Below are positions 1 to 52,524 of a DNA stretch of 64,000 nucleotides, piece after piece. Position 1 is the stretch's first letter, and the number at the start of each line of letters is the position of its first letter. This DNA comes from Squalus acanthias (Eukaryota). A model generated the notes under the pieces. The model did not search any database, was not told where the DNA came from, and saw only the letters and a program-made list of their open reading frames with translations. The stretch lies in assembly GCA_030390025.1 (NCBI GenBank), contig CM059432.1:69256001-69320000 (forward strand). The letters are read 5' to 3'. The translations under genes were made by a program, and so were the position numbers.

Positions 1-3000
1 GTGTTCTATAATATTCCTTGTGGCAGCATGGCTCTCAATGTATGCCTGCTGTGCACATGTGCATGGGTTCTGGACTGGAGTCGTGAGCCATGTCATGAGT
101 GGATAACCCTTGTCATCCAGTAGCCACCCTTTGATTTGCTATGGTAGTTTAAATACAGCTGGCACAGAGGACTTTAAAAAAAAAAATCATTTATGGGATC
201 AGGGCGTCGCTGGCAATGCCAGCATTTATTGCTCATCCCTAGTTGCCCTTGAGAAGGTGGTGGTGAGCCGCCTTCTTGAACCGCTGCAGTCCGTGTGGTG
301 AAGCTACTCCCACAGTGCTGTTAGGTAGGGAGTTCCAGGATTTTGACCCAGCGACGATGAAGGATCGGCGATATACTTCTAAGTCAGGATGGTGTGTGAC
401 TTGGAGGGAAACTTGGAGGTGGTGGTGTTCCCATGCGCCTGCTGCCCTTGTCCTTCTAGGTGGAAGAGATCGCGGGTTTGGGAGGTGCTGCCGAAGAAGC
501 CTTGGCGAGTTGCTGCAGTGCATCTTGTAGATGGTACACACTGCGGACACGGTACGCCGGTGGTGGAGGGAGTGAATGTTTAAGGTGGTGGATGGGGTGC
601 CAATCAAGCGGGCTGCTTTGTCCTGGATGGTGTCGAGCTTCTTGAGTGTTGTTGGAGCTGCACTCATCCAGGCAAGTGGAGAGTATTCCATCACACTCCT
701 TACTTGTGCCTTGTAGATGGTGAAAAGGCTTTGGGGAGTCAGGAGGTGAGACACTCAGGGCAGAATACCCAGCCTCTGACCTGCTCTTGTTGCCACACTA
801 TTTATGTGGCTGGCCCAGTTAAGTTTCTGGTTAATGGTGACCCCCAGGATGTTGATAGTGGGGGATTCGGCGATGGTAATGCCGTTGAATGTGAAAGGGA
901 GGTGGTTAGACTCTCGCTTGTTGGAGATAGTCATTGCCTGGCACTTCTGTGGCGCGAATGTTACCTGCCACTTATGAGCCCAAGTCTGAACATCGTCCAG
1001 GTCTTGTTGCATGCAGGCATGGACTGCTTCATTATCTGTGGAGTTGCGAATGGCGCTGAACACTGTGCAGTCATCAGCGAACATCCCCATTTCTGACCTT
1101 ATGTTGGAGGGAAGGTCATTGATGAAGCAGCTGAAAATGGTTGGGCCTAGGACACTGCCCTGAGGAACTCCTGCAGCGATGTCCTGGGGCTGTGATGATT
1201 GACTTTCAACCACCACAACCATCTTCCTTTGTGTTAGGTATGACTCCAGCCAGTGGAGCGTTTTCCCCTTGCTTCCCATTGACTTCAGTTTTACTAGGCC
1301 TCCTTGATGCCAGACTCAGTCAAATGCTGCCTTGATGTCAAGGGCAATCACTCTCACCTCACCTCTGGAATTCAGCTCCTTTGTCCATGTTTGGACCAAG
1401 GCTGTAATGAGGTCGGGAGCCAAGTGGTCTTGGCGGAACCCAAACTGGGCATCAGTGAGCATGTTATTGGCGAGTAAGTGCCACTGGATAGCACTGTCGA
1501 TGACACCTTCCATCACTTTGCTGATGATTGAGAGTAGGCTGATGGGGCGGTAATTGGCCGAGTTGGATTTGTCCTGCTTTTTGTGGGCAGGACATACCTG
1601 GGCAGTTTTCCACATTGTCGGATAGATGCCAGTGTTGTAGCTGTACTGAAACAGCTTGGCTAGAGGTGCGGCTAGTTCTGGAGCACAAGTCTTCAGCACG
1701 ATAGCCGGGATGTTGTAGGGGCCCATAGCCTTTGCTGTATCCAGTGCGCTCAGCCGTTTCTTGATATCACGTGGAGTGAATCGAATTGACTGAAAACTGG
1801 CATCTGTGATGGTGGGGACCTCGGGAGGAGGCCGATATGAATCATCCACTCGGCACTTCTGGCTGAAGATGGTTGCAAACGCTTCAGCCTTGTCTTTTGC
1901 ACTCATGTGCTGGGCTCCACCATCATTGAGGATGGGGATATTCTTGGAGCCTCCTCCTCCCGTTAGTTGTTTAATGGTCCACCACCATTCACGACTGGAT
2001 GTGGCAGGACTGCAGAGCTTTGATCTGATCCGTTGATTGTGGGATCGCTTAGCCCTGTCTAAAGCATGCTGCTTCCGCTTTTTAGCATGCATGTAGTCCT
2101 GTGTTGCAGCTTCCCCAGGTTGGCGCCACAGAACAAACGAATCGTGACTACTGCCAGGAAACCAGGCATTGACCTGCATGTGGTCACACACCAGTTGCAC
2201 ATTGGGGGAGTGGAATCCATTTCAGTTCTGGAAAATGGAAGAGTTGATATGAGGCGCATGCAAAGCAACATGCATGCAGTCAGTGGCACCCTGCACCATG
2301 GGAAATCCTGCAATCCATGCAAACCCTCGTTCTCGCTCCACCTGCTTGTCTCTGGCAAAAGGAAATGAGTTAAAGCTGTCTCGCTTTGTAAAGAGAGCCT
2401 CAGTGACCTCCCTTATGCAGCAGTGCTCTGCAAACTGTGAGATGTTGCTCATATCTCCAGCTCCAGCCTGGAAGGAGCCAGACACATAAAAGTTCATGGC
2501 CACGGTCACCTTCACAGCCACAGGCAATGCGGTCATTGCCATGCTCTGAGGTTGGAGTTGTGGCTGCACCAGTTGCCAGATTTCAGTGACGATCTCTTTA
2601 GTGAAGTGAAGATGTCTCAAGCAGTGGTCCTCGCTGAAGTTGAGGTAGGAGAATTGCTCCCTAAAGACCCTCGGCAGATATGGCCTTCTGCTGAGAGCCC
2701 TTCTCCCCCTCCTCTTCCTCCCTCTTCTAGTAGCTTTTGCTGCTCTGCATGGCCTCTCTTCATTCTCCCAGTCATGCTTAATTCCAAGAGGAAGGCTTAC
2801 TGGCCACCCATGTCTGGAAGCAACTGATTTCAACACAAGCCTTTAAGTCACCAAAAATGTACTTCAGCAACAGCCAGACGACTCCCTGTAGACTATTGAA
2901 ACTTTAGACAAGTATGGAAAAGCTCCCAAAATGTGTAGGATTGCAGCAACAGCCAGAAGAAATAATTCAGCAATTAACCTGTATGTCGTTCATGATCCCT

Positions 3001-10781: not shown

Positions 10782-10890
10782 CATCTTTCAGATGAGATGT
10801 TAAACTGAGGGCCCATCTGCCCTCGCAGGTGGGCTATAAAGTGCTTTGGAAGGTCATGAAAGGCAATATATAAATGCAAGTTGTATCTTT
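10782..10890 (+). mobile_element. Internally deleted Deu-domain SINE fragment with L2-like tail
   Basis: CTTTCAGATGAGATGTTAAACTGAGG (Deu) is joined to GGTCATGAAAGGCAATATATAAATGCAAG (tail). Confidence 0.7.
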
Positions 10891-12838: not shown

Positions 12839-13008
12839 AGTGAAGAGATGCATATAGGCACAGCATATATAGTCAGAGAATGCTGCCAGATGATTACAGT
12901 TCATCTTTCTAACTGCCCTTTATCACACCTCGGCAGAGAGATAATCACGGCAATCAAAGGTGTGGATGGTGTCCTAACAGGTCAGTCAGGAAAACATTAC
13001 ATCAAAGC

Positions 13009-14292: not shown

Positions 14293-14599
14293 CCCCACCT
14301 GACGTAGAGTCATCCAGACTTGAGTCGTCGTTGGCTTGTTCTCTCTACACAGATGCGGCCGGACCTGCTGTGATTTCCAGCAAAAAAAGTTTTTTGTTTT
14401 CCATACAGACCCCAGCATCTGCCACATTGTCTTTGATGTAATGTTTTCCTGACTGACCTGTTTGGACACCATCCACACCTTTGATTGCCATAATTATCTC
14501 TCTGCCGAGGTGTGATAAAGGGCAGTTAGAAAGATTAACTGTAATCATCTGGCAGTGTTCTCTGACTATATATGCTGTGCCTATATGCATCTCTTCACT

Positions 14600-15496: not shown

Positions 15497-15568
15497 AATA
15501 GACTTGTTAGCAAACTTGAAGCCCATGGGATGAAAAGGGCAGTGGCTGTGTGAATACCAAATCGGCTA

Positions 15569-16036
15569 AGAAAGAAAGACTTACATTTATATAGTGCCTT
15601 TCACGACCACCGGACGTCTCAAAGTGCTTTATGGCCAATGAAGTACTTTTGGAGTGTAGTCACTGTTGTAATGTGCGAAACACGACAGCCAATTTGCACA
15701 CAGCAAGCTCCCACAAACAGCAATGTGATAATGACCAGATAAACTGTTTTTTGTTATGTTGATTGAGGGATAAATATTGGCCGGGACACCAGAGATAACT
15801 CCCCTACTCTTCTTCGAAATAGTGCCATAGGATCTTTTACGTCCACCTGAGAGAGCTGACGGGACCTCAGTTTAACTTCTCATCCGAAAGACGGCACCTC
15901 CAACAGTGCAGCACTCCCTCAGCACTGCACTGGAGTGTCAGCCTAGATTTATGTGCTCAAGTCCCTGGAGTGAGACTTGAACCCACAACCTCCTGACTCA
16001 GAGGCAAGTGTGCTACCCACTGAGCGACAGCTGACA
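15569..16036 (-). mobile_element. Full-length tRNA-head Deu-domain SINE with L2-like tail (SacSINE1-like)
   Basis: A box GCTCAGTGGGTAG and B box GGGTTCAAGTCTC, a central Deu domain, and a tail ending CTATATAAATGTAAGTCTTTCTTT. Confidence 0.88.
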
Positions 16037-17312
16037 CAAAAAGCAGAGCGTAGTGGCGAACAGTTGTTTGTCAGACTGGAGGGAAGTATACAGTGGTGTC
16101 CCCCAGGGGTCTGTATTGGGACCACTTTTCTTTTTGATATATATTATTGACCTGGACTTGGGTATACAGGGCTTAATTTCGAAGTTTTCAGATGACACGA
16201 AACTCAAACTTTAGGAGGACATCGACAGACTGGTGAAATGGGCAGACACTTGGCAGATGAAATTTAACGCAGAGAAGTGTGAAGTGATTCATTTCGGTAG
16301 GAAGAATGAGAAGTGGCGATATAAACTAAGTGATACAATTTTAAAGGGGGTGCAGGAACAGAGAGACCTGGGGGTCTATGCACACAAGTCTTTGAAGGTG
16401 GAAGGAGAAGTTGAGAAAGCTGTTAAAAAGGCATACGGGATCCTTGGCTTTATAAATAGAGGCATAGAGTACAAAATCAAGGAAGTTATGCTAAACATTT
16501 ATAAAACATTGCTTAAGCCTCAGCTGGAGTATTGTGGCCAATTCTGACACCACACTTTAGAGAGGGTGCAGAGGAATGGTATCAGGGATGAAAGTCGTCA
16601 GTTACGTGGAGAGAAACTGGGGGTTTTCTTCTTAGAGCAGAGAACATTAAGGGACGATTTTATACAGGTGTTCAAATTCAAGAAAGGGTTTGATAAAGTA
16701 AATAAGGAGACTCAAGGTGGCATCAGGGAAAAATAGAATTAAGTCAAAGCTAAAGGCATTATATCTGAATGCATGAAGCTTTTGCAACAAAATAGATGAA
16801 TTAATAGCACAGATAGAAATTAGTAGGTTTTATCTAATAGCCATTATGGAGATGTGGTTGTAATGTGGCCAAGGTTGGGAACTAAATATTCCAATATGCT
16901 TAACCTTTAGAAGAGAGAGGCAAAATGGAAAAGGAGAGGGGTAGCCCTGATAATAAAGGATTGGATAAAGACAGTAGAGAGAAAGGATCTGAACTCCGAA
17001 AATCAAGAAGTAGAATCAGTTTGGGTGGAGCTAAGAAACAGCAAGGGGCAGAAAACATTGGTGGGAATTGTTAATAGGCCCTCAAACATTAGTTGTAATG
17101 TAGGGCAGAGTATAAATCGGGATTTTTTTTTTTTATTCGTTCATGGGATCTGGGCGTTGCTGGCAAGGCCAGCATTTATTGCCCATCTTTAATTGCCCTT
17201 GAGAACATGGTGGTGAGCCGCCTTCTTGAACCGCTGCAGTTCGTGTGGTGAAGGTACTCCCACAGTGCTGCTAGGGAGGGAGTTCCAGGATTTTGACTCA
17301 GCGACGATGAGG

Positions 17313-17430
17313 AAAGAAAGAAAGAAAGACTTGCATTTATATAGCGCCTTTCATGACCACCGGACGTCTCAAAGCGCTTTACAGCCAATGAAGTACTTTT
17401 TTGAAGTGTAGTCACTGTTGTAATGTTGTA
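17313..17430 (-). mobile_element. 5'-truncated SINE (L2-like tail only) inside LINE copy A
   Basis: (AAAG)n followed by ACTTGCATTTATATAGCGCCTTTCATGACC, matching the SINE tail at 15569. Confidence 0.85.
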
Positions 17431-20316
17431 ATGTTGGAACGGCGATATACTTCCAAGTCAGGATGGTGTGTGACTTGGCGGGGAACTTGGAGGTGGTGGT
17501 GTTCCCATGCGCCTGCTGCCCTTGTCCTTCTAGGTGGAAGAGGTCGTGGGTTTGGGAGGTGCTGCCGAAGGAGCCTTGGCGAATTGCTGCAGTGTATCTT
17601 GTAGATGGTACACACTGCAGCCACGGTACGCCATTGCTGGAGGGAGTGAATGTTTAAGGTGGTGGATGGGGTGCCAATCAAGCGGGCTGCTTTGTCCTGG
17701 ATGGTGTTGAGCTTCTTGAATGTTGTTGGAGCTACACTTATCCAGGCAAGTGGAGAGTATTCCATCACACTCCTGACTTGTGCCTTGTAGATGGTGGAAA
17801 GGCTGATTTGTCCTGGATGGTGTCAAGCTTCTTGAGTGTCCAGTTAAGTTTCTGGTCAATGGTGACCCCCCAGGATGTTGATGGTGGGGGATTCGGTGAT
17901 GGTAATTCTGTTGAATGTCAAGGGGCGGTGGTTAGACTCTCGCTTGTTGGAGATAGTCATTGCCTGGCACTTGTGTGGCACAAATGTTACCTGCCACTTA
18001 TCAGCCCAAGCCTGAATGTCGTCCAGGTCTTGTTGCATGCGGGCATGGACTGTTTCATAATCTGAGGAGTTGCGAATGGCACTGAACACTGTGCAGTCAT
18101 CAGCGAACATCCGCATTTTTGACCTTATGATGGAGGGAAGGTCATTGATGAAGCAGCTGAAGATGTTTGGGTCTAGGATACTGCCCTGAGGAACTACTGC
18201 AGCGATGTCCTGGGGCTGTGGTGATTGACCACCAACCACCTTCCTTTGTGCTAGGTATGACTCCAGCCAGTGGAGAGTTTTCCCCCTGATTCCCATTGAC
18301 TTCAGTTTTACTAGGGCTCCTTGATGCCACACTTGGTCAAATGCCACCTTGGTGTCAAGGGCAGTCACTCTCACCTCAAATCTGGAATTCAGCTCCTTTG
18401 TCCACGTTTGGACCAAGGCTGTAATGAGGTCTGGAGCCGAGTGGTCCTGGCGGAACCCAAACTGGACATCAGTGAGCAGGTTCTTGATAGCACTGTCGAC
18501 GACGCCTTCCATCACTTTGCTGATGATTGAGAGTAGACTGATGGGGCAGTAATTGGCCGGTTGGATTTGTCCTGCTATTTGTGGACAGGACGTAACTGGG
18601 CAGTTTTTCACATTGTCTGATAGATGCCAGTGTTGTAGCTGTACTGGAACAGCTTGGCTAGAGGCGCGGCTAGTTCTGCAGCATGATAGCCGGGATGTTG
18701 TCGGGGCCCATAGCTTTTGCTCTATCCAGTGCACTCAGCCGTTTCTTGATATCATTTGGAGTGAATTGAATTGGCTGAAGACTGGCTTCTGTGATGGTGG
18801 GGACCTCAGGAGGAGGCCGATATGGATCATCCACTCAGCACTTCTGGCTGAAGATGGTTGCAAACGCTTCAGCCTTGTCTTTTGCACTCACGTGCTGGGC
18901 TCCACCATCATTGAGGATGGGGATATTCATGGAGCCTCCTCCTCCCGTTAGTTGTTTAACCACCATTCACGACTGGATGTGGCAGGACCGCAGAGCTTTG
19001 ATCTGATCTGTTGATTGTGGGATCGCTTAGCCCTGTCTATAGCATGCTGCTTCCGCTTTTTAGCATGCATGTAGTCCTGTGTTGCAGCTTCCCCAGGTTG
19101 GCACCTCATTTTTAGGTATGCCTGGTGTTGCTCCTGGCATGCTCTTCTACACTCCTTATTGAACCAGGGTAGGTCGCCTGGCCTGATGGTAATGGTAGAG
19201 TGAGGGATATGCCGGGCCATGAGGTTACAGATTGTGGTGGAATACAATTCTGCTGCTGCTGATGGCCCACAGCGCCTCATGAATGCCCAGTTTTGAGTTG
19301 CTAGATCTGTTCTGAATCTATCCCATTTAGCACGGTGGTAGTGCCACACAACACGATGCAGGGTGTCCTCAGTGTGAAGACGGGACTTCGTCTCCACAAA
19401 GACTGTGCGGTGGTCACTGCTACCAATGCTGTCACAGACAGATGCATCTGCGACAGGTAGATTGGTGAGGATGAGGTCAAGTATGTTTTCCCCTCATGTT
19501 GGTTCTCTCACCACCTGTCGCAGGCCCAGACTGGCAGTTATGTCCTTCAGGACTCGGCCAGCTCAGTCAGTAGTGGTGCTACCGAGCTACTCTTGGTGAT
19601 GGACATTGAAGTCCCCCACCCAGAGTACATTCTGTGCCCTTGCTACTCTCAGTGTTTCTTCCAAGTGGTGTTCAACATGGAGGAGTACTGATTCATCAGC
19701 TGAGGGAGGGCAGTAGGTTGTAATCAGCAGGAGTTTTCCTTGCTTGACCTGAAGCCATGAGACTTCATGGGGTCCGGAGTCAATGTTGAGGACTCCCAAG
19801 GTCACCCCTGGTGGATCTATCCTGCTGGTGGGACATACCCAGGAATGGAGGAGTTTGGGACATTGGCTGAAAGGTATCATTCTGTGAGTATGACTACGTC
19901 AGGCTGTTGCTTGTCTAGTCTGTGGGACAGCTCTTTCAATTTTGGCACAAGTCCCCAGATGTTGATGAGGAGGAGTTTGCAGGGTCGACTGGGCTGGGAG
20001 TGCCATTGTCGTGTCCGTAGCCAGTGCCAAGGTCAATGCCGGGTGGTCCATCCAGTTTTATTCTTATTATTGTGTTTCATAATGGTTTGCTACAACTGAG
20101 TGGCTTGCTCGGCCATTTCAGAGGGCAGTTAAGAGTCAACCACATTGCTGTGGGTCTGGAGTCACATAGAGGCCAGACCAGGTAAGGACGGCAGATTTCC
20201 TTCCCTAAAGAACATTAGTGAACCAGATGGGTTTTTACGACAATCTGATAGTTTCATGGTTAGCATTACTGATACTAGCTTTTTATTCCAGATTTATTAA
20301 TTAACTGGATTTGTTA

Positions 20317-20396
20317 GCTGCGGTGGGATTTGAACTCACGTCTCTGGATCATTAGTCCATGATTACTGGTCCAGTAATATTACCACTATGCCACCC
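20317..20396 (-). promoter_or_regulatory. tRNA-derived Pol III type 2 promoter-like head of LINE copy A
   Basis: A box and B box followed by the CCCACC acceptor-like end. Homologous to 29975-30060. Confidence 0.7.
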
Positions 20397-21035
20397 ATGA
20401 GGTGCATGTAACAAGCGTAATACAGTAAACATGGGGGACTTTATTCTACATATAGACTGGGCAAACCAAATTTGCAGTAATAGTGTGTAGAATTTTATAT
20501 TGAGTTTGAAAGTGATTTAGTTAAATCCGAAACTAAGGTCTTAAATCTAAACAAAGCAAACTACGTATGTATGAGGGGCGAGTTGGCTAAGGTAGATTGG
20601 GAAACTACATCGAAAGGTATGACGGTAGAGAAGCAATGGCTAGCATTTAAAGAATTAATACATAATTTACAGCAAATATACATTCCTTTAAGGCACAAAA
20701 ACCTCACAGGGAAAGTGGTCCAAGCATAGCTAGCAAGAGAAGTTAAAGATAGTATTAGATCAAAGGAAGAGGCTTGTAATGTTGCCAAAAAGAATAGTAA
20801 GCCTGAGGATTGGGAGGATTTTAGAATTCAGCAAAAGAGGATCAAGAAATTGATAAAGAAACAGAAAATAGAATATGAGAGTAAACCAGCTAGAGACATA
20901 AAAACAGACTATAAAAGCTTTTATAGGTATGTAAAAAGGAAAAGATTAGCGAAAGTAAATGTGGGTCCCTTACAGGCTGAGACAGAAGAAATTATAATGG
21001 GGAATAAGATAATGGCAGAGAAATTAAACAAATAC

Positions 21036-22686
21036 AAGTGGCGGGGGAGCCAATTTAGATCATTATGTGGCTTGTGAACAGCCAATCTAATGCTATTTTG
21101 AGCCTACCTTGTAATTTTATGTGCTCCCCCACGGGTTACCCGCTGCTCGGGGAACACGCCAGCTCACCCTGGCGTGAGTTGAGTCTGCTTTGATTTATCT
21201 GATATCCTGACAGCTGAAGAAGTGGTATAAAGGACACCATGTTGCAGCTGTTCAGTTTCAGAGCTCAGAAACTGTTGGTTACTGCATTTGTAAGACATAT
21301 AGTGATTTTTTTAGCTTGCAAGTGTTTAGAGCCAACTGCATATCCAGTGGCACCTCATTGGAACAACCTCTCTCACCATTGACAGATCGTTTCTGTCATC
21401 TCAACTGCAGCTGCCATCTATTCCAGCATCATCGGTACCCTTGACAAAATCACACCTTGGTCCTCTGAATCCTTCCACAATCAGCCCCAACACCAACATC
21501 ACCAGGCACACCAAATCACCAACAATAATAACAACCGTCTCTGCCATCACCTGATGCTGCACAGGACACAGCGCATCAGCACCTGACAACATTGCTGCCC
21601 AGGAGGCCAGCGGTGGCATCACCATGGCCAGATTTACTTCACTTGGCGCTGTACACCTTGGCTATTACATGATGCACCAGGTTGACACCATCCCACACCA
21701 GCACCATAAAGCACCCTACAATGTCCAAGCCATTCTTTTAACACTCATCACAATACCTTGGGGGGGTGGGGGGGGGGGGGTGGGGAGGCGGGGGGGTTAC
21801 GTCTCAACATTCACTGGAACTCAATAAGACACTTCTCAAGGTTAGCACATATCTGTCCAATAAGGTGAAGTGTTGAAAATATAGATTTCAATGTATGACA
21901 ACACATTAACAGAAACTTCACATGAACATTGGCTAAACCTCTCAAGTGCCTACCCTTGTGTGTTGTTAATTGGTATGCTTGCAGTAGGATGAGGGTGAGT
22001 GTGAGGGGTGGCTAGTGAGATGGGGAAGTGATAATGTAGATAGAGAGAGATGGGTGGAGTTGCAAGGTAAGTTGGTGTGAGTAAGGATGTGCAGGAGTAG
22101 GGTATGGAAGGCAGAGTGATGGGGATGTGATGAGTGGCACAGCAGGGTGAGTTTTGAGTGTGGTTTTGCAGTAACATTTCATGATCTACTGAGTTCATTG
22201 AAAGGTTGGTGCCACTGCAGCCAGGGACTCCTGACGACATCCCTGCTTGTGTCCTCCTGAAACAGACTGTGTTGATCTCCTAGGGAAGTCTCTTCCGCCC
22301 ATGGGAAGGGAAGAGAATCTCCCTGCGTGCTGTGACTCCCTCCATAAGCATATGGAGGGAGTCATGCATGAGCCTGGGTGCAGACGTGCACCTTTGTGCA
22401 GTGCTTGTCAATGTCTGCAGCACCTCAATGCTGCAGAACACTGACAGCACAACTGTCAAAATCAATGTGGCCGTGGTCACTTTAAGGAAACCGGCTGATG
22501 ACGCATCATCAAATGACATCATCAGACCCGCTTCCTGTTAATTGGCCAGGAACTCCGCAGGGCGGGCTTAACAAGGCCAATCTACGGAAAATCTTTTTCA
22601 GAGAGCGGCTGCAGACGGGAGCGGGACCGGAACCCGCCAACCAGCTCTCCTGCCGCCATCCCGCCTCTGCAGGGAAAATCCAGCCC
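21036..22686. mobile_element. Internally deleted Harbinger derivative (second family) in CR1
   Basis: Right terminus AAAATCCAGCCC and a minus-strand Myb-like remnant LMEGVTARREILFPSHGRKR. Shares blocks with 49655-50507. The CR1 frame resumes at 22687. Confidence 0.75.
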
Positions 22687-28995: not shown

Positions 28996-30272
28996 ACAGC
29001 TCCATATGGATTTGCAGTCTGTGTCACTCTTGGCAATGGTAATTGTCACTGCAAGCACGTTTCTCCTGTTGTTAACTCTGTATTTGTATTTGGATATTTA
29101 GGTACCTTGGGGGTAAGATTTCCCATGATGGCATTATAAATGCACTTTAGAAGATTTCCCCCATTCAGTATTTCTAGCAAAATCATGAACAGATTGGGGT
29201 AGAGTTTCCGATAGCTGACGCTGGTGTTTCCAGTGCAATTCGCCCAAAATTGGGCAAAACAGCGCAAAAGATCAAGGAATTTCTAACGCAAATTATATCC
29301 CGTGCAAATCGATTTTACACAATCTTTTGCGCTTGTTTAAAAAACATAGCACTGGAAGCTGGCCTCACCCATAAACTGGCCTTGCCCCCAGATCGAAATA
29401 ATCACCAAGGCGAGTTCCCACTCATTGTGCCCGTTTGCGGGCCTTCAAGGAGGCTCTTAAAATTAATGGTTTCTTTAGGCGTAAGGGCACTAATAGGCAC
29501 CTTTTAAAAGCTTTTAAATATTTATTTTAATTTACTAAGAAACTGATTACATCTCCAATGAAATAATTTGGAAAGACGTCCAAAATACAGTGAGGTGTTT
29601 TTGATTAGTTCCTGGAAAATAAATAATGTTTTCCTTACAGAATACAGTTAGTTAGATAAATAGATACCACAATTACATAAATAGCTCTCTGCATGTAATA
29701 CGGAGAACATCTAGTTAATGTCTATCTATTCAAGGTATGTGGCTTTTAAATATATATTTTAATAAATATATTAAACCTTAGTTTTTCATAATTGCATCTT
29801 TACAAAAATCTCTACAACAGTACTTAGTTTTTTTAGTAAAACATTTGTACGAAACAGTAAAACAAGTAGTTGTAAGCAAAGGTGCATTGTTGGAGTTGTA
29901 GGCTGCTACTTTGGTGGCCTCTTCAGCTGACAGTGATATCCCTGGTATCTGGAGGCCCAGGCTTCCCACATAGGTACAGGTAGCATAGTGTTTATGTTAC
30001 TGGATGAGCAATCCAAAGGCCTGGACTAATAATCTGGTGACATGAGTTCAAATCCCACTGTGGCTGAATTTAAATTCAGTTAATTAATAAATCTGGAATG
30101 AAAAGCTAGTATCAGTATTGGTGACTGTGAAACTACTGGATTGTCATAAAAACCCACCTGGTTCACTAATGTCTTTTAGAAAAGGAAATCTGTCTTCCTT
30201 ACCTGGTCTGGCCTATATGTGACCGCCTTTTGAAATGGCCTAGCAAGTCACTAAGTTGTACCAAACTGTTAC

Positions 30273-30692
30273 AAAAGAAAGACTTGCATTTATATAGCAC
30301 TTTTCACGACCACCGGACGTCACAAAACGCTTTACAGCCAATGAAGTACTTTTTGAAGTGAAGTAACTGTTGTAATGTAGAAATATTGAAACGCGGCAGC
30401 CAATTTGCAAACAGCAATGAGATAATGACCAGATAATCTTTCTTTTAGTGATTTTGTTTGAGGGATAAATATCAAAAAAGTGCCATAGGGTCTTTTATGT
30501 CCACCAGAGAGAGCAGACAGGGCCTTGGTTTAACATTTCATCTGAAAGACAGGCCCTCCAACAGCACAGCACTCCCTCAGTAATGCACTGGAGTGTCAGA
30601 CTAGATTTTTGTGCTCAAGTTTCTATGGAGTGGGATTTGAACCCACAACCTACACTTGTGACTCAAAGGCAAGAGTGTTTCCAACTGAGCTA
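30273..30692 (-). mobile_element. Deu-domain tRNA SINE inside the LINE copy B 5' region
   Basis: Colinear with the SINE at 15569-16036. Confidence 0.85.
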
Positions 30693-31055
30693 AAGAAGTA
30701 TACAAAGAATAAAACCTGACAGACCACCAGGCATTGACCTAGGCACCGGACACGACAAAAGCACTCCCAGCCCAATCGACCCTGTCCCACAGGCTAGTCA
30801 AGCAACAGCCTGACATAGTCATACTCACAGAATCATACCTTTTAGCCAATGTCCCAGACTCCTCCAGCACCATCCTTAGGTATGTCCTGTCCCACCAACA
30901 GGACAGACCCACCAGAGGTGGTGGCACTGTGGTATACAGTCGGGAGGGAGTGGCCCTGGGAGTCCTCAACATTGACTCCTGACCCCATGCAGTCTCATGG
31001 CATCAGGTCAAACATGGGCAAGGAAACATCCTGCTGATTACCATCTACTGACCCA

Positions 31056-31181
31056 CTGACAGCCATGGCTCAGTTGGAAGCACCCTCGCCTCTGAATCAC
31101 AAGGCTGTGGATTCAAGTCCCACTCCAGAAACTTGAGCACAAAAATATAGTCTGACACTCCAGTGCAGTATTGAGGGAGTG
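31056..31181 (+). mobile_element. SINE 5' part only (tRNA head, 3'-truncated)
   Basis: TGGCTCAGTTGG and GGATTCAAGTCCC boxes are present. The fragment stops at GAGGGAGTG, where the LINE resumes. Confidence 0.8.
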
Positions 31182-32560
31182 TCCTCCCTCAACTGATAAA
31201 TCAGTACTCCTCCATGTTGAACACCACTTAGAAGAAGCACTGATGGTAGCAAGGGCACAGAAAGTACTCTGGGTGGGGGACTTCAATGTCCATCACCAAG
31301 AGTGGCTCGGAAGCACCACTACTGACTGAGCTGGCCGAGTCCTGAAGGACATAGCTGCCAGACTGGGGCTGCGGCAGGTGGTGACAGAACTAACACGAGG
31401 GAAAAAAATCTGCTTGACCTCGTTCCCACCAATCAACTGTCACAGATGCATCTGTCCAGGACAGTATTGGTAGGAGTGTGCAATATGGAGGATTACTGAT
31501 TCATCAGTCCTTGTGGAGACAAAGTCCCATCTTTACACTGAGGACACTCTCCATCGTGTTGCGTGGCACGACCACCGTGCTAAATGGGATAAATTCAGAA
31601 CAGATAGAGCAGTTCAAAACTGGGCATCCATGAGGCGCTGCAGGCCATCAGCAGCAGCAGAATTGTATTCCACCACAATCTGTAACCTCATGGCCCAGCA
31701 TAACTCACACTCTACCATTACCATCAACCCTAGTACAATGATGAGTGTAGAAGAACATGGCAGGAGCAGCACCAGGCTTACCTAAAAATGAGGTGCCAAC
31801 ATGGTGAAGCTACAATACATGCTAAAAAGCGGAAACAGCATGCTATTGACAGAGCTAAGCGATCCTGCAACCAACGGATCAGATCAAAGCGCTGCAGTCC
31901 TGCCACATCCAATTGTGAATGATGGTGGACCATTAAACAACGAATGGGAGGAGGAGGCTTCATGAACATCCCCATCCACAATGATGGCGGAGCCCAACAT
32001 GTGAGAGCAAAAGCCAAGGCTGAAGCATTCGCAACCATCTTCAGCCAGAAGTGGCGAGTGGATGATCCACCTCAGCCTCCCCCTGAGGTCCCCATCATTA
32101 CAGAAGCCAGTCTCCAGCCAATTCGATTCACTCCACGTGATATCAAGGAACGGCTGAGTGCACTGGATACTGCAAAGGCTATGGACCCAGACAACGTCCC
32201 GGCTATCGTGCTAAAGACTTGTGCTCCAGAACTAACCGCGCCTCTAGCCGAGCTGTTCCAGTACAGCTACAACAGTGGTATCTTCCTGAAAATGTTGAAA
32301 GTTCTCCAGGTATGTCCTGTCCTCAAAAAGCAGGACCAATCCAATCTGATCAATTACTGCCCCATCAGTCTACTCTCACTCATCAGCAATGTGATGGAAG
32401 GTGTCATTGACAGTGCTATCGAGCACCACTTACTCACCAATAACCTGCTCACTGATGCTCAGTTTGAGTTCCGCCAGGAACACTCGGCTCCAGACCTCAT
32501 TACAGCCTTGGTCCAAAAATGGACAAAAGAAATGAATTCCAGAGGTGAGGTGAGAGTGAC

Positions 32561-33720
32561 TTCCAAAAGGCATTCGATGCCACATAAAAGGTTGCTACGC
32601 AAGATAAGGGCATGTGGGGTTGGGGGTAATGTATTACCATGGATAGAGGATTGGTTAACAGACAGAAAACAGAAAGTAAGGATAAACGGGACATTTTCAG
32701 ATTGGTAGGCTGTAACTAGTGGGGTGCTGCAAGGATCAGTGCTTGGGCCTCAGCTATTTACAATCTATATTAATGACTTAGAGGAAGAGACTGAGTGTAA
32801 TGTATCCAAGTTTGCTGACGATATAAAGCTAGGTGGGACAGTATGATGTGAGAAGGATGCAAAGAGCTACAAAGGGATATAGACAGGTTAAGTAAGAGGG
32901 GGGAGAAGTTGGTGGTTGGAGTATAATGTGGGGAAATGTGAGGTTATTTACTTTGGTAGGAAGAATAGAAAAACAGAATATTTTTTAAATGGTGAGAAAC
33001 TAATAAATGTTGGTGTTCAGAGAGATTTGGGTGTCCTAGTACAAGAACCACAGAGAGTTAGCATGCAGGTACAGCAAGCAATTAGGAAGGAAAATGGCAT
33101 GTTGGCCCTTATTGCTAAAGGGTTGGAGTACAAGAGTAAGGAAGTCTTGTTACAATTGTACAGGGCTTTGGTGAGACCAAAGTTTTGGTCTCCTTATCTA
33201 AGGAAGGATACACTTACCTTAGAGGCGGTGCAACGAAGGATCACTAGATTGATTCCTGGGATGTGAGGGTTGTCCTATGGGGAGAGATTGAGTAGATTGG
33301 GCCTATACTTTCTGGAGTTTAGAAGAATGAAAGGTGATCTCATTGAAACACATAGGATTCTGAGGGGGATTGATAGGATACATGCTGAGAGGTTGTTTCT
33401 CCTGGCTGGTGAGTCTAGAACTAGGGGGCATAGTCTCAGGATAAGGGGTCGGCCTATTAAGACTGAGATGAGAAGGAATTTCTTCACTCAGAGGGTTGTG
33501 AATCTTTGAAATTCTCTGCCTCAAAGGGCTGTGGCTGCTCAGTCGTTGAATATATTCAAGGCATAGATTTTTGGACTCTATAGGAATCAAGGGATATGGA
33601 GATAGGGCAGGAAAGTGGCGTTGAGGTCGAATATCAGCCATGATCTTATTGAATAGCAGAGCAGGCTCGAGGGGCCGTATGGCCTACTCCTGCACCTAAT
33701 TCTTATGTACTTATGTCTTA
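32561..33720 (+). mobile_element. CR1 3' fragment nested in LINE copy B
   Basis: Runs from FQKAFD..PHKRLL to a (TTCTTATG)n tail. The host LINE GTGAGAGTGAC|TGCCCTTGAC is split at this point. Confidence 0.92.
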
Positions 33721-34148
33721 TGCCCTTGACATCAAGGCTGCATTTGACTGAGTGTGGCTTCAAGGAGCCCTAGTAAAATTGAAGTAAATGGGAATCAGGG
33801 GGAAAATGCTCCACTGGCTGGAGTCATAACTAGCACAAAGGAAGATGGTTGTGATTGTTGGAGGCCAATCATCTCAGCCTCAGGACATCGCTGCAGGAGT
33901 TCCCCAGGACAGTGTTCAAGGCTCAACCATGTTCAGCTGCTTCATCAATGACCTTCCCTCCATCATAGAGTCAGAAGCGGGGATGTTCGCTGATGATTGC
34001 ACAGTGTTCAGTTCCATTCACAACTCCTCAGATAATAAAGCAGTCCGTGCCCGCATGCAGCAAGACCTGGATGACATTCAGGCTTGGGCTGATAAGTGGC
34101 AAGCAACATTCGCGCCACACAAGTACCAGGCAATAACTATTTCCAACA

Positions 34149-34253
34149 AAAATGAGAAGTCGCACAACACCAGGTTATAGTCCAACAGTTTTATTTGAAA
34201 TTACGAGCTTTCGGAGCTCTGCTCCTTCGTCAGGTACAGTGAGGGACCTGACG
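34149..34253 (-). mobile_element. Solo Penelope pLTR (family 2) with hammerhead motif
   Basis: Matches 12750-12836. Minus strand reads CUGACGA-A-GGAGC AGA GCUCC-GAAA-GC-UC. Confidence 0.85.
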
Positions 34254-35337
34254 AAAAGAGAGTCTAACCACCACCCCATGACATTCAACGGCATTACCAT
34301 CGCCAAGTCCCACATCATCAACATCCTGGGGATCACCATTGACCAGAAACTTAACTGGACCAGCTGCATGAATACTGTGGCTACAAGAGAAGGTCAGAGG
34401 CTGGGTATTCTGCGGCGAGTGTCTCACCTCCTGACTCCCCAAAGCCTTTCCACCATCTACAAGGCACAAGTCAGGAGTGTGATGGAATACTCTCCACTTG
34501 CCTGGATGAGTGCAGCTCCAACAACACTTAAGAAGCTCAACACCATCCAGGACAAAGCAGCCCACTTGATTGGCACCCCATCCACCACCTTAAAAATTCA
34601 CTCTCTCCACCACCGGTGCACCGTGGCTGCAGTGTGTACCATCTACAAGATGCACTGCAGCAACTCGCCAAGGCTTCTTCGACAGCACCTCCCAAACCCA
34701 CGACCTCTACCACCTAGAAGGACAAGGCCAGCAGGCTCATTGGAATATCACCATCCTGACCTGGAAATATATTGCTGTTCCTTCATTTTTGCTGGGTCAA
34801 AATCCTGGAACTCCCTCTCTAACAGCACTATGGGAGTGCCTTCACCACACGGACTGCAGCGGTTCAACAAGGTGGCTCACCACCACCTTCTCAAGGGCAA
34901 TTAGGGATGGGCAATAAATGCTGGCCTTGCCAACAACGCTCACATCCCATGGACGAATAATTAAAAATATCATTAAAAGAAAAACATTGTTACAGGAATT
35001 TCAAACACTGAAAATGTTATCTTAGTGACAAGATTATTTTGTGGGGATTTTTTTGTCTTTATTTTGTAACAATTCTTATTTCCAATATTAAGTGCACAGC
35101 TTAGCAGACAGTTAAAGATGGTGGCTTAATGGATTTTCAAAAACTATTTTGAGCAGTTTGATTGGTTCACAATTTGTATAGGTGGCTATCACTAATGGTT
35201 TTTTTTAGCTTATAGTTCTCTGAACTTTATGACTTCCTGATAACTATTTGTTGTTTGGTATATTTCCTATTTGTTCAGTTGAATATGTAATATGTAATTC
35301 AGCCAATCAGATGCAGGCCGGATATAGAAATGTATTT

Positions 35338-37090: not shown

Positions 37091-37894
37091 TTTTTTTTAA
37101 TTGATTGCATATAAGCAAGTGTGATGCCCAAATTATGATGGACAAAAACACACACAAAGTAGATGTACTGTTTTTATATGTATATAGATAGGCCTAAATT
37201 CTGATATTTTACACTGTTTTGTGCAATAACAATGCATTTTTAAAAAACATTAATCAGTCTGTATTTTTCCACAAGTTGCTTATCAGAAGAGAAACTTGTT
37301 TTAAGTCTACTGCTTTGAGCTGTCTGGGGAATATTGTAATTGTTCACTGGAAAGGTGGCTGCTGCATTTACCCACAGAGAGTATGTTTAGGAGCCACTGA
37401 ACTTGGTTCCTTTCCAAGGTATTGTGCAATTACTTCACAGTGTCTGATTTACTTTAAAGCTTCTTGTTATTGCAGTTTAAAGCTTCAATTTATCCCACAT
37501 ACATCCTGTTTAAAACTGCTTTTCTTCCCTGTTGAACAATGACAATGTATAACATATCATGGTTTTTACAGATGGAAGTTGCATCTTGAATACAGACTGA
37601 TTTTGATGCAGTGAGAATCTGCAAAACACATGCTCCTCTGGTTTGAGTTAAGCAAAAGTCTATGATCAAGACATTAAGCAGTCACTCTGGCTAAAGAAGA
37701 ACAACAACTCGCATTTATATTACATAGAATTACATTGAATTTACAGAAACAGGCCATTCAATCCAACTGGTCCATGCTGGTGTTTATGCTCTACATGAGC
37801 CTCCTACTCACTTTACTTCATCTTACCCTATCCTTCTATTCCTTTCTCCGTTATATACCTATCTAGCTTCCCCCAAATGCTTCTATGCTACACA

Positions 37895-38681
37895 AGGGCA
37901 AGGGCAGACGTCGATGACGAAGTCCAACACCACCTTCAGTGTGCCAGCGCAGCCTTCGGTCACCTGAGGAAGAGAGTGTTTGAAGACCAGGACCTCAAAC
38001 CCAGCACTAAGCTCATGGTCTACAGAGCAGTAGTGATACCCGCCCTCCTGTATGCTTCAGAGACATGGACCATGTACAGCAGGCACCTCAAAGCACTGGA
38101 GAGGTACCACCAACGCTGCCTCCGCAAGATCCTGCAAATCCATTGGCAGGATAGGCGCACCAACGTCAGTGTACTCGCTCAGGCCAACATCCCCAGCATC
38201 GAAGCTTTGACCATGCTCGATCAGCTCCGATGGATGGGCCACATCGTCCGCATGCCCGATACGAGACTCCCAAAACAAGCGCTCTACTCGGAGCTCCGAC
38301 ACGGCAAGAGAGCCCCAGGTGGGCAGAGGAAACGCTTCAAGGACACCCTCAAAGCCTCCTTGAAAAAGTGCAACATTCCCACCGACACCTGGGAATCCCT
38401 GGCCCAAGACCGCACAAAGTGGAGGAGAAGCATCCAGGAAGGCGCCAAACACCTCGAGTCTCTTCGTCTGGAGCAAGCAGAAGCCAAGTGCAAACAGCGG
38501 AAGGAGCGCTAGTCAACCCAAGCACCCCACTCACCCGCCCCTTCAACCACCGTCTGCCCCACCTGTGACAGAGAATGTAGGTCCCGCATTGGACTCATCA
38601 GTCACCTGAGAACTCATTTTTAGTGTGGAAGCAAGTCATCCTCGGTTCCAAGGGATTGCCTAAGAAGAGAAGAAGAAGAAG
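37895..38681 (+). mobile_element. RTE-clade (BovB-like) LINE 3' fragment with 10-bp TSD, inserted in a CR1 tail
   Basis: Motifs AFGHLRKRVF, VYRAVVIPALLYASETWT, QLRWMGHIVRM and GGQRKRFKDTLK, with an (AAG)n tail. ATGCTACACA occurs at 37885-94 and 38682-91. Confidence 0.92.
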
Positions 38682-41132: not shown

Positions 41133-42610
41133 ACTTGTGCTCCAGAACTAGCCGCGCCTCTAGCCGAGCTGTCCCAGTACAACTACAACACTGGCATCTA
41201 CCTGACAATGTTAAAAACTGCCCAGGTATGTCCTGTCCACAAAAACAGGACAAATCCAGTCGGGTCAATTACCGTCCCATCAGTCTACTCTCATTCACAG
41301 CAAAGTGATGAAAGGTGTCATCGACAGTGCTATCAAGCGCCACTTACTCACCAATAACCTGCTCACTGATGCTCAGTTTGGGTTCCACCAGGACCACTCG
41401 GCTCCAGACCTCATTACAGCCTTGGTGCAAACATGGACAAAAAAGCTGAATTCCAGAGGTGAGGTGAAAGTGACTCCCCTTGACATCAAGGCATCAAGAA
41501 GCCCAAGTAAAATTGAAGTCAATGGGAATCAAGGGGAAAACTCTCCACTGGCTGGAATCATACCTAGCACAAAGGAAAATAGTTGTGGTTGTTGGAGGCC
41601 AATCATCACAGCTCCAGGACATTGCTGCAGGAGTTCCTCAGGGCAGTATCCAAGGCCCAACCATCTTCAGCTGCTTCAACAATGACCTTTCCTCCATCAT
41701 AAGTTCAGAAGTGGGGATGTTCGCTGATGATTGCACAGTGTTCAGTTCCATTCACAACTCCTCAGATAATGAAGCAGATAATGCACGCATGCAGCAAGAC
41801 CTGGACGATGTTTAGGCTTGAGCTGATAAGCGGCAAGTAACATTCGCGCCACACAAGTGCCAGGCAATGACTATCTCCAACAAGAGAGAATCTAACCACC
41901 GCCCCTTGACATTCAACGGCATTACCATCACCAAATCCCCCACCATCAACATCCTGGGGGTCACCATTGACCAGAAACTTAACTGGACCAGTCACATAAA
42001 TACTGTGGCTACAAGAGCAGGTCAGAGGCTGGGTACTCTGCGGCGAGTGTCTCACCTCCTGACTCCCCAAAGCCTTTCCACCATCTACAAGGCACAACTC
42101 AGGAGTGTGATGGAATGCTCTCCACTTGCCTGGATGAGTGCAGCTCCAACAACACTCAAGAAACTCAACACCATCCAGGACAAAGCAGCCCACTTGATTG
42201 GTACCCCATCCACCACCTTAGACATTCACTCCCTCCACCACCGACGCACTGTGGCTGCAGTGTGTACCATCTACAAGATGCACTGCAGCAATTCACCAAG
42301 GCTTCTTCGACAGCTCCTCCCAAACCCGCGACCTTTACCAAGTAGAAGGACAAGGGCAGCAGGCGCATGGGAACACCATCACCATCAAGTGCCCCTGCAA
42401 GTCACACACGATCCTGACTTGGAAATATATCGCCGTTCCTTCATCGTCGCTGGGTCAAAATCCTGGAACACCCTCCCTAACAGCACTATGGGAGTACTTT
42501 CATCACACAGGCTGCAGCAGTTCAAGAAGGCAGCTCACCACTACCTTCTCAAGGGCAATAAATGCTGGCCTTGCCAGCGATGCCCACATCCCAGGAACAA
42601 ATTAAAAAAA
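41133..42610 (+). mobile_element. Zenon-like LINE, 5'-truncated (RT to poly(A))
   Basis: ORFs 41305-41815 and 41867 onward. Same family as copies A and B. Confidence 0.93.
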
Positions 42611-42814
42611 ACTAGGTCAAAGAGGTGGCTGTTAAGAAGGATCTTAAAGAAGGAGAGGGAGATGGTGAGCAAGCGGTTTAAGGAAGAAATTCTGGATCAT
42701 GGAGTCTAGCAGCTGATGACACGGTTGGCAATAGTTGAATGAAGGGAGGCGGGTATGCAAAAGAGGCTGGAATCAGAGAATGGAGAGTTCAGAGGAGGGG
42801 GTGTTGTAGTGTTC

Positions 42815-44800: not shown

Positions 44801-45010
44801 AATTAGAAGCGGAAAAGTTATACCACAGTTATATTTTCTCTCACTACTCCAATGTGATTGGCAAAGCCACATGTATCATCTGTGTCACAACACAATAGTC
44901 AAGTCATCTGAGGAAGCATCACTGGAAATTACTGTTAGATCAAGGCCACTGAAAGTTAGCTAACGGTTCCGATTTTCGGGACTTCAATATTAGATTCAAA
45001 GAGTGTTTGA

Positions 45011-45415
45011 AAGAAAGTGTTGCATTAATATTGCGCCTTTCATGACCTCAGGATGTCCCAAAGTACTTTACAACCAATGAAGTACTTTTTGATGTGTAGT
45101 CACCATTGTAAATTAGGAAACGCGGCAGCCAATTTGCACATAGCAAGCTCCCACAAACAGCAATGTGATAATGACCAGATAATCTGTTTTTTTTAGTGAT
45201 GTCGATTGAGGGATAAATATTGGCCTAGACACCGGGGATAACTCACCTGCCCTTCTTCGAAATAGTGCCATGGGATTGTTTATGTCCACGAGAGCGCAGC
45301 CGTCCCTCGGTTTAACATCTCGTCCAAAAGACAGCATCTCTGGCAGTGCAACACTCCCTCAGTACTGCACTGGAGTGTCACCCTAGATTTTTTGTGCTCA
45401 AGTCTCTGGAGTGGG
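45011..45415 (-). mobile_element. Deu-domain SINE, slightly 5'-truncated
   Basis: Colinear with 15569-16036. Confidence 0.88.
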
Positions 45416-50634: not shown

Positions 50635-52186
50635 TTTTTTTTTAATGTGGGCGTCGCTGGCAAGCCCAGCATTTATTGCCCATCCCCATTGCCCTTGAAA
50701 AAGTGGTGATGAGCCACCTTCTTGATCCACTGCAGTCCATGTGGTGAAGGTATTCCCATAGAATTGTTACGGAGTCAGTTCCAGGATTTTGACCTAGCGA
50801 CGATGAAGGAACAGCGATATATTTCCAAGTCAGGATGGTATGTGACTTGGAGGAGAACTTGGAGGTGATGGTGTTCCAATGCGCCTGCTGCCCTTGTCCT
50901 TCTAGATGGTGGAGGTCGCAGGTTTGGGAGATGCTGTCGAAGAAGCCTTGGCGAGTTGCTGCAGTGAAAAGCTAAAAACAGTGGAGGTCCAAAGAGACTT
51001 GGGGGGCCAGGTACATAGATCATTAAAATGTCATGAACAGGTACAGAAAATAATCAAAAAGGCGAATGGAATGCTGGCCTTTATATCTAGAGGGCTAGAA
51101 TACAAGGGGGTAGAAGTTATGCTGCAGCTTTTCAAAACCCTGGTTAGACCACACCTGGAATACTGTGAGCAGTTCTGGGCACCACACCTTAGGAAGGATA
51201 TATTAGCCTTGAAGGGAGTGCAGCATAGGTTTACCAGAATGATACCCGGAATTCAAGGGTTAACTTACGAGGAGGGTTGTATTCCCTAGAATTTAGAAGG
51301 TTAAGGGGTGATCTAATCAAAGTTTTCAAGATATTAAGGGGAACAGATACGGTCGATAGAGAGAAACTATTTCCACTGGTTGGGGATTCTAAGACTAGGG
51401 GGTATAGTCTAAAAATTACAGCCAGACCTTTCAGGAGTGAGATTAGGAAACACTTCTACACACAAATGGTGGTAGAAGTTTGGAGCTCTCTTCCACAAAT
51501 GGTAATTGGTGCTAGATAAATTGTTAATTTTAAATCTGAGATTGATAGCTTTTTGTTAACCAAAGGTATTAAAGGGTATGGGCCAAAAGCGGGTACGTGG
51601 AGTTAGGTCGCAGATCAGCCATGATCTCATTGAATGGCGGAACAGGCTCGAGGGGCTGAATAGCCCACTCCAGTTCCTATGTTCAGTGCATCTTGTGAAT
51701 GGTACACACTGCAGCCACAGTGCGTCGGTGGTGGAGGGAGTGAATGTTTAAGGTGGTGGATGGGGTACCAATCAAGTGGGCTGCTTTGTCATGGATGGTG
51801 TCGAGCTTCTTGAGTGTTGTTGGAGCTGCACTCATCCAGGCAAGTGGAGAGTATCCCATCACACTCCTGACTTGTGCCTTGTAGATGGTGGAAAGGCTTG
51901 GGGGAGTCAGGAGGTGAGACACTCGTCGCAGAATACCCAGCCTCTGACCTGCTCGTGAAGCCACAGTATTTATGTGGTTAGTCCAGTTAAGTTTCTGGTC
52001 AATGGTGACCCCCAGGATGATGATAGTGGGGAATTCGGTGATGGTAATGCTGTTGAATGTCAAGGGGCAGTATTTAAACTCTCTTTTGTTGGAGATAGTC
52101 ATTGCCTGGCACTTGTGTGGCGCGAATGTTACTTACCACTTATCAGCCCAAGCCTGAATGTCGTCCAGGTCTTGCTGCATGCAGGA
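50635..52186 (-). mobile_element. Zenon-like LINE 3' fragment interrupted by CR1
   Basis: Pieces 50635-50966 and 51683-52186 match the family's C-terminus and 3' UTR. Confidence 0.9.
50967..51682 (+). mobile_element. CR1 3' fragment with CAGTG TSD
   Basis: ANGMLAFISRGLEYK..RPHLEYC. CAGTG is duplicated on both sides. Confidence 0.9.
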
Positions 52187-52524
52187 ATGTGGCTGTGTCA
52201 GCTGTGGCTGTGGCTGTAAAGTGCTTTTAGACATCCTAAGGTCATGAAAGGCGCTATATAAAAGCAAGTCTTTCTTCCTTTCTTGTTGCTTGCTGCTGCA
52301 ATTGAAGTTAAAGGAAACACAGTGTTGAGGATGGAATTCCATTGGGAGTTCCCATGGCGCTCCACAATTTAGATTAGGAAGAGTTGTTCATGTGGGGACT
52401 CCAAATAGAGATACGATGAAGCCTCAGGCTTTATGTCTGAAACCTGTCAATAACCTAGGACTGTCATTGATGGACCCTAACACTCCTAACTGGACTTATT
52501 GTAGGATAATCTTGTTACTTCTCC

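Follow-up and report, generated by a model that had tools for sequence, protein, structure and literature searches.

A tRNA-Like Head and a Conserved Leader Core on an ORF1-Less Zenon LINE of Sharks and Rays

Zenon Copies and Their Neighborhood

The window, that is, the whole 64,000-nucleotide stretch of Squalus acanthias DNA analyzed here, is rich in shark-type repeats (Table 1). Among these are five copies (A to E) of one LINE family, 87-92% identical in pairwise comparison. One SINE family, which has a different tRNA-like head and a tail of TTTC repeats and is presumably SacSINE1/Deu-like, is present in long copies and in fragments, and three of its insertions lie inside the LINE copies A and B. 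A 459-codon open frame at 12913-14292 (+), of which 53 nt recur inverted at 14426-14478, is taken from its motifs to be a Penelope-type reverse transcriptase with a GIY-YIG endonuclease. Two frames at 2222-2842 (-) and 6185-7054 (+) have motifs that we assume to be those of Harbinger/HARBI1-like transposases, and a further frame neighbors them at 7304-8440 (-).

TABLE 1. Coordinates of the LINE copies, their parts, and the TTTC-tail SINEs within the window.
Feature	Position	Strand	Remarks
Copy C, 5'-truncated	187..2130	-	ends in a run of about 10 T starting at 186
SINE fragment, TTTC-tail family	10784-10892
SINE, long copy	15555-16025		own tRNA-like head, TTTC-repeat tail
Copy A, near full length	17124..20397	-	reaches 5' end
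Copy A, 3' end	17180-75	-	AATAAA; A11 tail
Copy A, SINE-tail insert	17313-17443		SINE fragment, TTTC-tail family
Copy A, RT		-
Copy A, NIWGL	19963	-
Copy A, off-frame ATA	20061	-
Copy A, decayed ATG	20080	-
Copy A, AUG	20116	-
Copy A, head	20397-20315	-
Copy B	29975..34967	+	reaches 5' end
Copy B, tRNA-like head	29975..30066	+	collinear with tRNA-Ser(AGA) genes
Copy B, A box	29981-29991
Copy B, anticodon-like hairpin	30000-30016
Copy B, second hairpin	30021-30037
Copy B, B box	30044-30055
Copy B, leader body	30067..30273	+	33-nt deletion relative to copy A
Copy B, leader core conserved in sharks and rays	about 30125-30258	+	from consensus rows
Leader hairpin H1	30177..30201	+	= copy A 20207-20183
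Terminal leader hairpin	30230..30255	+	7-nt anticodon-like loop 30240-30246; AUG 30235-37; stop TAG 30241-43
GTT ACA (family GCT ACG)	30268..30273	+	= copy A 20083-20078
Later antisense SINE insertion, 419 nt	30274..30692	-	long copy; own, different tRNA-like head; TTTC-repeat tail
Remainder of copy B	30697..34967	+	Arg-rich N-terminus, APE, RT, 3' UTR, A tail
Insert in copy B	about 31063-31181
SINE fragment, TTTC-tail family	31068-31181
Insert in copy B	32575-33700		a CR1
Insert in copy B	34150-34256
Copy B, AATAAA in 3' UTR	34913-18	+
Copy D, 5'-truncated	41138..42611	+
SINE, long copy	45010-45416		own tRNA-like head, TTTC-repeat tail
Copy E, 5'-truncated	50645..52200	-	split by CR1 insertion
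SINE fragment, TTTC-tail family	52211-52284
SINE, long copy	53401-53802		own tRNA-like head, TTTC-repeat tail

Copy B is classified as a decayed elasmobranch Zenon LINE of the CR1 group. Exact strings from the window match only Zenon rows of Supplementary Table 2 of PMC13343379, and the 5' 400 nt of the window copies are nearly identical by eye to the published Zenon rows, with SquAca_Zenon-1 the closest; the assignment relies on these two comparisons. The enzyme frame matches the RVT_1 domain (E 2.6e-30), and its endonuclease part (APE) matches Exo_endo_phos_2 at E 8.5e-5, below the cut-off of that model, with APE-type protein relatives also found. For the 44 protein relatives, the N-termini were guessed by gene finders and so leave the start unsettled, and a protein search with the enzyme N-terminus yielded no relative among seven candidates. 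Related protein pieces at 79-87% identity make up 5 of 246 candidates, all of them fragments within shark gene models. At the DNA level, no relatives were found in a metagenome pattern search, in a metagenome protein scan (0 of 129 candidate stretches), in the viral collection or in prokaryote genomes. Zenons have been described in five elasmobranchs, in every case lacking ORF1 and ending in a poly(A) tail (PMC13343379, excerpts). In the window this tail is a run of 8-11 A in copies A, D, and E, it is short in copy B, and it is replaced in copy C by a T run followed by A3. LINE pieces also occur inside annotated shark gene models (P0001-P0005 and P0016-P0030), including an aldo-keto reductase, a storkhead-box protein, and others; these are probably annotation artefacts.

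An earlier reading of the window from its sequence alone had noticed that head and leader are common to copies A (-) and B (+). The alignment confirms this, since 20395-20161 matches 29979-30223 at 81% over 245 nt, and two further collinear blocks lie beyond. The same sequence-only reading had the leader joined to the APE domain in copy B, which was mistaken: the 419-nt antisense SINE intervenes, directly behind CTGTTACAA, and deletions have removed about 50 nt holding NIWGL (near 30784) as well as 33 nt of leader, and the collinear APE block lies at a distance of 807 nt. For the leader-APE junction, copy B makes poor evidence.

A tRNA-Like Head Integral to the Element

The head is present at the start of all seven published elasmobranch Zenon consensuses, which come from five species (four sharks and one ray), and at the start of none of the three consensuses from hagfish and coelacanth. 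Five exact B-box strings were searched over the leading 400 nt of roughly 1,000 CR1-group rows, and the six matches all fell in headed Zenon rows. Copy A provides a second line of evidence. It splits the endonuclease region of an older CR1 (+; 16300-17123 and 20398-21100), whose reading is broken between ...INRD and GACNK..., and the break coincides exactly with the head of copy A on one side and with its A tail on the other. Copy A thus entered the CR1 as one head-plus-LINE unit, and the claim that the head is integral, and not a chance SINE-LINE adjacency, holds. No clear target-site duplication flanks copy A, and the only one proposed for copy B, a 6-nt match overlapping the head, is not convincing. 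On sequence evidence, sharks and a ray carry the head, the leader, and the APE-RT frame as a single unit of 3.3 kb.

The A and B boxes follow each other in tRNA order and spacing (at 20393 and 20337 in copy A, and 29981 and 30044 in copy B). The head otherwise varies between species. The Rfam tRNA model scores the head of copy A at 21.6 bits against a cut-off of 29 (E 0.038) and does not match that of copy B, and ARAGORN finds no tRNA gene in the window. The acceptor stem pairs poorly, with non-pairs in the Rfam alignment of copy A, and the head is therefore a promoter-like remnant and not a tRNA. It is collinear with tRNA-Ser(AGA) genes, with a variable region 11 nt longer, and all six tRNA genes that share its arm pattern are Ser-AGA (among 120 viral loci, with a pattern chosen by us). 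The first anticodon-like loop itself reads AGT, as for Thr. The head probably originated from a type II tRNA-Ser.

A duplicated anticodon-arm unit with AGT in the loop had also been proposed for the head. The two hairpins exist, but AGT does not run through them: copy A and most consensuses have it in the first loop, while the first loop of copy B reads AGC and the second loop AAT. In the four shark species the second hairpin keeps one geometry, a 5-bp stem with a 7-nt loop, and its stem letters show compensating pair changes between species (by eye, in consensus rows); the loop is lost in the ray row. It closely resembles the first arm only in the dogfish-type subfamily, which is closest to the window copies. 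The sequences do not discriminate between a duplication and an expanded variable arm.

Six to nine nucleotides behind the B-box arm are complementary by eye to the 3' strand of leader hairpin H1 (about 20322-20312 versus 20193-20185 in copy A), and the same complementarity is seen by eye in the published rows of all five species. A long-range alternative pairing between head and leader is possible. Compared with shuffled sequences, folding of the head gives z values of -1.72 and -0.55.

Lack of an AUG for the Enzyme Frame

There is no ORF1 in this LINE family. The 5' end of copy A is separated from the NIWGL asparagine by about 435 nt (437 from 20400), an interval without a long ORF in any frame, all of them being closed by stops. 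This agrees with the sequence-only reading and with what is published for all Zenons.

The ATG at 20080-78 of copy A, in frame with the enzyme, had been interpreted as a decay product of a non-ATG ancestor. This interpretation is upheld, as the majority letter at 20079 gives ACG in each of the four sequencing runs aligned (56, 63, 63, and 78% of contig depth). At 20082 and 20083, contig depth gives the family reading CCGCTACG. In copy A the ATG runs into a TGA at 20035-33, where the family has CGA in 71-97% of depth. Conserved AUGs do exist, and the earlier reading had taken a conserved AUG in the consensus as telling against its view of initiation, but none of them opens the enzyme frame in any sequence examined, window copies and seven consensuses alike (frames in the published consensus rows being counted by hand). 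Non-AUG or recoded initiation is thus still needed.

One of the conserved AUGs lies about 98 nt before NIWGL. Off the enzyme frame, it is seen by eye in six of the seven consensuses and in all five species, and it opens about 46 codons over the start of APE. Translation could begin there, and either a -1 frameshift or termination-reinitiation could then carry it into the enzyme frame; the small ORF would serve as a starter or survive as a vestigial ORF1. Both window copies have ATA at this position, from which the frame remains open for 41 codons in copy A. Two whale-shark gene models (P0025 and P0007) join this frame to that of APE, but both were predicted from decayed copies. By eye, the NIWGL asparagine is not preceded by a slippery heptamer, and since the stop is located downstream of NIWGL, reinitiation there would lose the first APE motif. 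Changes between species favor neither frame (two are silent in the enzyme frame only and one in the AUG frame only, counted by hand), and a weak protein search with the peptide gave no relative among 12 candidates. A start at this AUG, with the small ORF in either role, appears rather unlikely.

Possible Signs of Pol III Transcription

The sense strand of a Pol III transcript must be free of T4 runs. Across the five copies (10.6 kb within BLAST-defined ends, nested inserts removed, and the terminal T run of copy C from 186 left out), each of the eight TTTT runs is confined to a single copy. In copy A, TTTT is absent against 5.6 expected and TTT occurs nine times against 27, with AAAA at its expected count (22 and 22). 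The majority sequence of the window copies contains no T4 and six T3, versus 15 A4 and 46 A3, and its eight Phe codons are all TTC. A CR1 control has 20 T4 runs in 5,440 nt, with all four runs of one copy common to another copy; for a second CR1 query none of five runs is shared, three of these lying where no copies overlap. No T4 is seen by eye in the 5' 400 nt of the seven headed consensuses, which represent one lineage, while each of the three headless rows has several, and the 5' ends in the published table average about 2.6 T4 runs per row (2,613 run starts). The private state of the internal TTTT runs suggests, without proving, transcription by Pol III. T makes up about 21% of the element versus 26% of the CR1 control. 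The uncapped Pol III transcript of the sequence-only reading is made plausible, though only indirectly, by this avoidance of T runs, but synonymous shuffles of a 358-codon piece are free of T4 with probabilities of 0.49 and 0.24. A 613-nt piece of an RTE-type LINE 3' part in the window (37799-38512, +), with 15% T, is also without sense TTTT.

At the 3' end, four of the five copies have T2 or longer after AATAAA and before the A tail, which is the loose rule given along with Pol III terminator behavior in PMC8466645 (excerpts). The pattern is short, and AATAAA with poly(A) fits Pol II equally. The end of copy C (176-186, -), with about ten T before three A, looks like the elongated Pol III terminator of aged T+ SINEs.

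A capped Pol II RNA, started from an upstream host promoter or from an internal promoter within the conserved core, would make the head a captured SINE-like passenger whose only present role is to define or protect the 5' end, and ribosomes would reach a near-cognate codon by scanning or reinitiation beyond the short upstream ORFs. Non-LTR elements are stated to be transcribed by Pol II (PMC10886601, excerpts), poly(A) is typical of all Zenons including the headless ones (PMC13343379, excerpts), and the T-run depletion is not significant against synonymous shuffles. Yet within the head it is the A and B boxes that are conserved best across five species, and no internal T4 is shared over 3.3 kb. 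Scanning would be hindered by the nine ATGs upstream of 20080 in the leader of copy A, the poor acceptor stem argues against trimming by RNase P, and a hand count finds no near-cognate codon that keeps the frame in every species. We regard Pol II transcription followed by such a start as rather unlikely.

The headed family could also be a SINE-LINE chimera that is not autonomous: a rarer Zenon with an AUG would amplify it in trans, and its frame would be inherited only. This would suit the rarity of intact frames in the published table (0 of 2,313 and 3 of 612; PMC13343379, excerpts). However, all seven elasmobranch Zenon consensuses are headed, with no headless one listed, the consensuses of the five species are more than 84% identical (PMC13343379, excerpts), and a 358-codon open stretch survives in the majority sequence of the window copies. 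Amplification in trans is very improbable.

A Leader Core as Candidate Start Element

The leader contains a core of about 160 nt that hardly changes between the five species, much less than the head or the A-rich linker, and that ends at the start of the frame. Piecewise folding of the copy A leader yields four hairpins in the MFE folds, one of them with a GNRA loop, and one pair of H1 reads A-U, G-U, or G-C depending on the species (by eye, in consensus rows). The core as a whole does not fold beyond shuffled sequences (z -1.23). MFE folding returns the terminal hairpin in copy A (20121-20096) and not in copy B.

Within this terminal hairpin is an AUG that the sequence-only reading had missed when it denied any shared AUG: it is present in copy A, in copy B, and in all seven consensuses. 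Its Kozak context is good. A TAG closes it, at codon 3 in copy B and the family but at codon 9 in copy A; in six of the seven consensuses it is followed by GCC TAG (an 11-mer including the stop). That this AUG is the real start and its amber stop is read through is the least probable of the alternatives, for despite its conservation and the absence of the stop's T at 20110 in about 35-45% of depth, the AUG is in the enzyme frame only in copy A and three of the seven consensuses, and copy A as well as dogfish consensuses 1 and 2 have a second stop at codon 9.

The 7-nt loop of the hairpin is CUAGCAA, and its UAGC could pair with a GCUA located 12-13 nt downstream. This GCTA is kept in all seven consensuses between two variable stretches. 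By hand count, GCT keeps to the enzyme frame in copy A as well as in four of the seven consensuses, that is, in four of the five species (one linker being 3 nt shorter), and it is out of frame in all three dogfish consensuses, those most like the window copies. The codon right after GCT is ACG in the family and the ATG at 20080 in copy A. GCT ACG may combine two roles, as candidate pseudoknot partner and as candidate first decoded codon. The putative pseudoknot would have three to four base pairs and is absent in the decayed copy A. A motif detector designed post hoc finds it in 6.6% of shuffled leaders when allowed anywhere, and in 0.5% at the end. No Rfam IRES matches the leader, and a helix survey of the two decayed copies supports neither PKII/PKIII nor the conserved L1.1, SLIV, and SLV motifs.

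It had been suggested that the tRNA-like leader may supply initiation. For the head this is not supported, given its position about 230 nt upstream of the frame start, its poor acceptor stem, and its variation between species. The leader core with its terminal hairpin appears to be the better candidate start element. Three further ideas gained no support. A compensatory pseudoknot pair, GCTC at loose ends 20091 in runs X4 and X8 together with non-T at 20110 in about a third of depth, is unphased, with an agreement of 0.37-0.39, and is not counted. A separate A-tailed SINE had been considered from the higher depth of the leader and T-rich loose ends at 20084-20091; these ends belong to the diverged A-rich linker of other subfamilies, and contig depth cannot rank parts, so that neither observation serves as evidence for such a SINE. 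As to an origin of the leader from the 66-bp Meta domain, the bivalve MetaSINE rows in part 1 of 4 of the PMC4824008 supplement are unlike it by eye.

A Model for Expression

The best explanation, which we hold tentatively and a little short of even confidence, is an ORF1-less headed Zenon LINE made by Pol III and translated without an AUG from its folded leader core. A tRNA promoter would have been captured by a template switch in the ancestor of elasmobranchs, and the A and B boxes of the head would act as an internal Pol III promoter. The RNA would run to the 3' AATAAA and short T run, and be polyadenylated as in T+ SINEs. These transcriptional steps, from promoter to polyadenylation, are rather likely. 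Since a Pol III RNA has no cap, the leader core would have to recruit ribosomes: the conserved hairpin core, and not the head, may both bring them in and set the frame on the uncapped RNA, which is possible but less assured than the model's transcriptional half. Decoding might start at the codon after the conserved GCU. Pairing of the terminal hairpin loop with the downstream GCUA would then make a reduced mimic of the dicistrovirus pseudoknot I, a step that we consider doubtful. The protein would finally copy the RNA from its poly(A) end by target-primed reverse transcription, which is established LINE biology. The fullest version of the model is an autonomous retrotransposon of sharks and rays whose 3.3-kb mRNA is made by Pol III from a captured tRNA promoter and starts without cap or AUG through a factor-independent, dicistrovirus-like pseudoknot mimicking tRNA and codon, with an overlapping +1 ORF. 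Taken as a whole, this version is improbable.

Relation to Known Elements

R2 and other ribozyme-headed non-LTR elements have a single ORF, an RNA that presumably goes uncapped, and a leader proposed to act like an IRES, and in these respects they resemble the headed Zenon. L1Tc is another ribozyme-headed element, and its leader reportedly resembles a tRNA (PMC3383444, excerpts). In these elements, however, an HDV-like ribozyme cuts the 5' end from another transcript, whereas the headed Zenon has a tRNA-derived promoter and no ribozyme match.

The window family is like the elasmobranch Zenons of PMC13343379 in its single APE-RT ORF, lack of ORF1, poly(A), length of about 3.3 kb, and head in the consensuses. 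It differs from the Zenons of hagfish, coelacanth, and Lepidoptera (derived SIDE), which are without the head. The lack of ORF1 is already published. The head, the signs of Pol III, and the start problem are undescribed in the main text of the Zenon paper, where neither "tRNA" nor "start codon" is mentioned. In the Creative Commons literature searched, no coding LINE with a tRNA head is described from sharks (excerpts of PMC13343379, PMC4824008, PMC5786205, PMC6740152, PMC11481361, PMC5499810, PMC10886601, and PMC3383444); Repbase and subscription work (HE1/HER1) may bear on priority.

With the T+ SINEs B2, Dip, and Ves, the element has in common a head with A and B boxes, AATAAA, a short T run, and an A tail (PMC8466645, excerpts). 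SINEs, however, are 100-700 nt long and non-coding, whereas the headed Zenon measures 3.3 kb and encodes APE and RT. The leader can also be compared with type 6 (dicistrovirus intergenic) IRESs, which have a similar length and an anticodon-like loop with a possible codon-like partner before a non-AUG frame (PMC12221177 and 10.1101/2024.04.17.590008, excerpts). An overlapping +1 ORF is present in the headed Zenon as in the type 6 IRESs of bee viruses, and pseudoknot I has five base pairs in IAPV against the smaller number possible in the Zenon leader (PMC4132737, excerpts). Neither PKII/PKIII nor the conserved loop motifs of type 6 IRESs were identified in the leader. On present tests it is laid out like a candidate start signal and is not a member of type 6.

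In the standard division, LINEs are Pol II mRNAs and SINEs are Pol III non-coding RNAs (PMC10886601, excerpts). A coding LINE lineage with a fixed tRNA head in sharks and rays crosses this division, and constitutes a natural test of whether a vertebrate Pol III transcript can serve as a long mRNA. If true, a Pol III RNA translated from a folded leader would be a new way of expression for such an element. The absence of an in-frame AUG leads to a defined 160-nt candidate element with a specific pairing and codon, which bears on how single-ORF LINEs start translation. The lineage also offers a direct route between LINEs and SINEs. In SINEs whose bodies derive from the 5' UTRs of RTE and Vingi LINEs, LINE 5' regions and small-RNA heads were joined by template switching (PMC5786205, excerpts), but there the head is on a non-coding deletion derivative, whereas in the headed Zenon it is on a full coding element. 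Finally, in hundreds of contigs the sequence upstream of the conserved core is a diverged segment (loose ends behind 20245 and behind 20260), pointing to further subfamilies that would share the same core.
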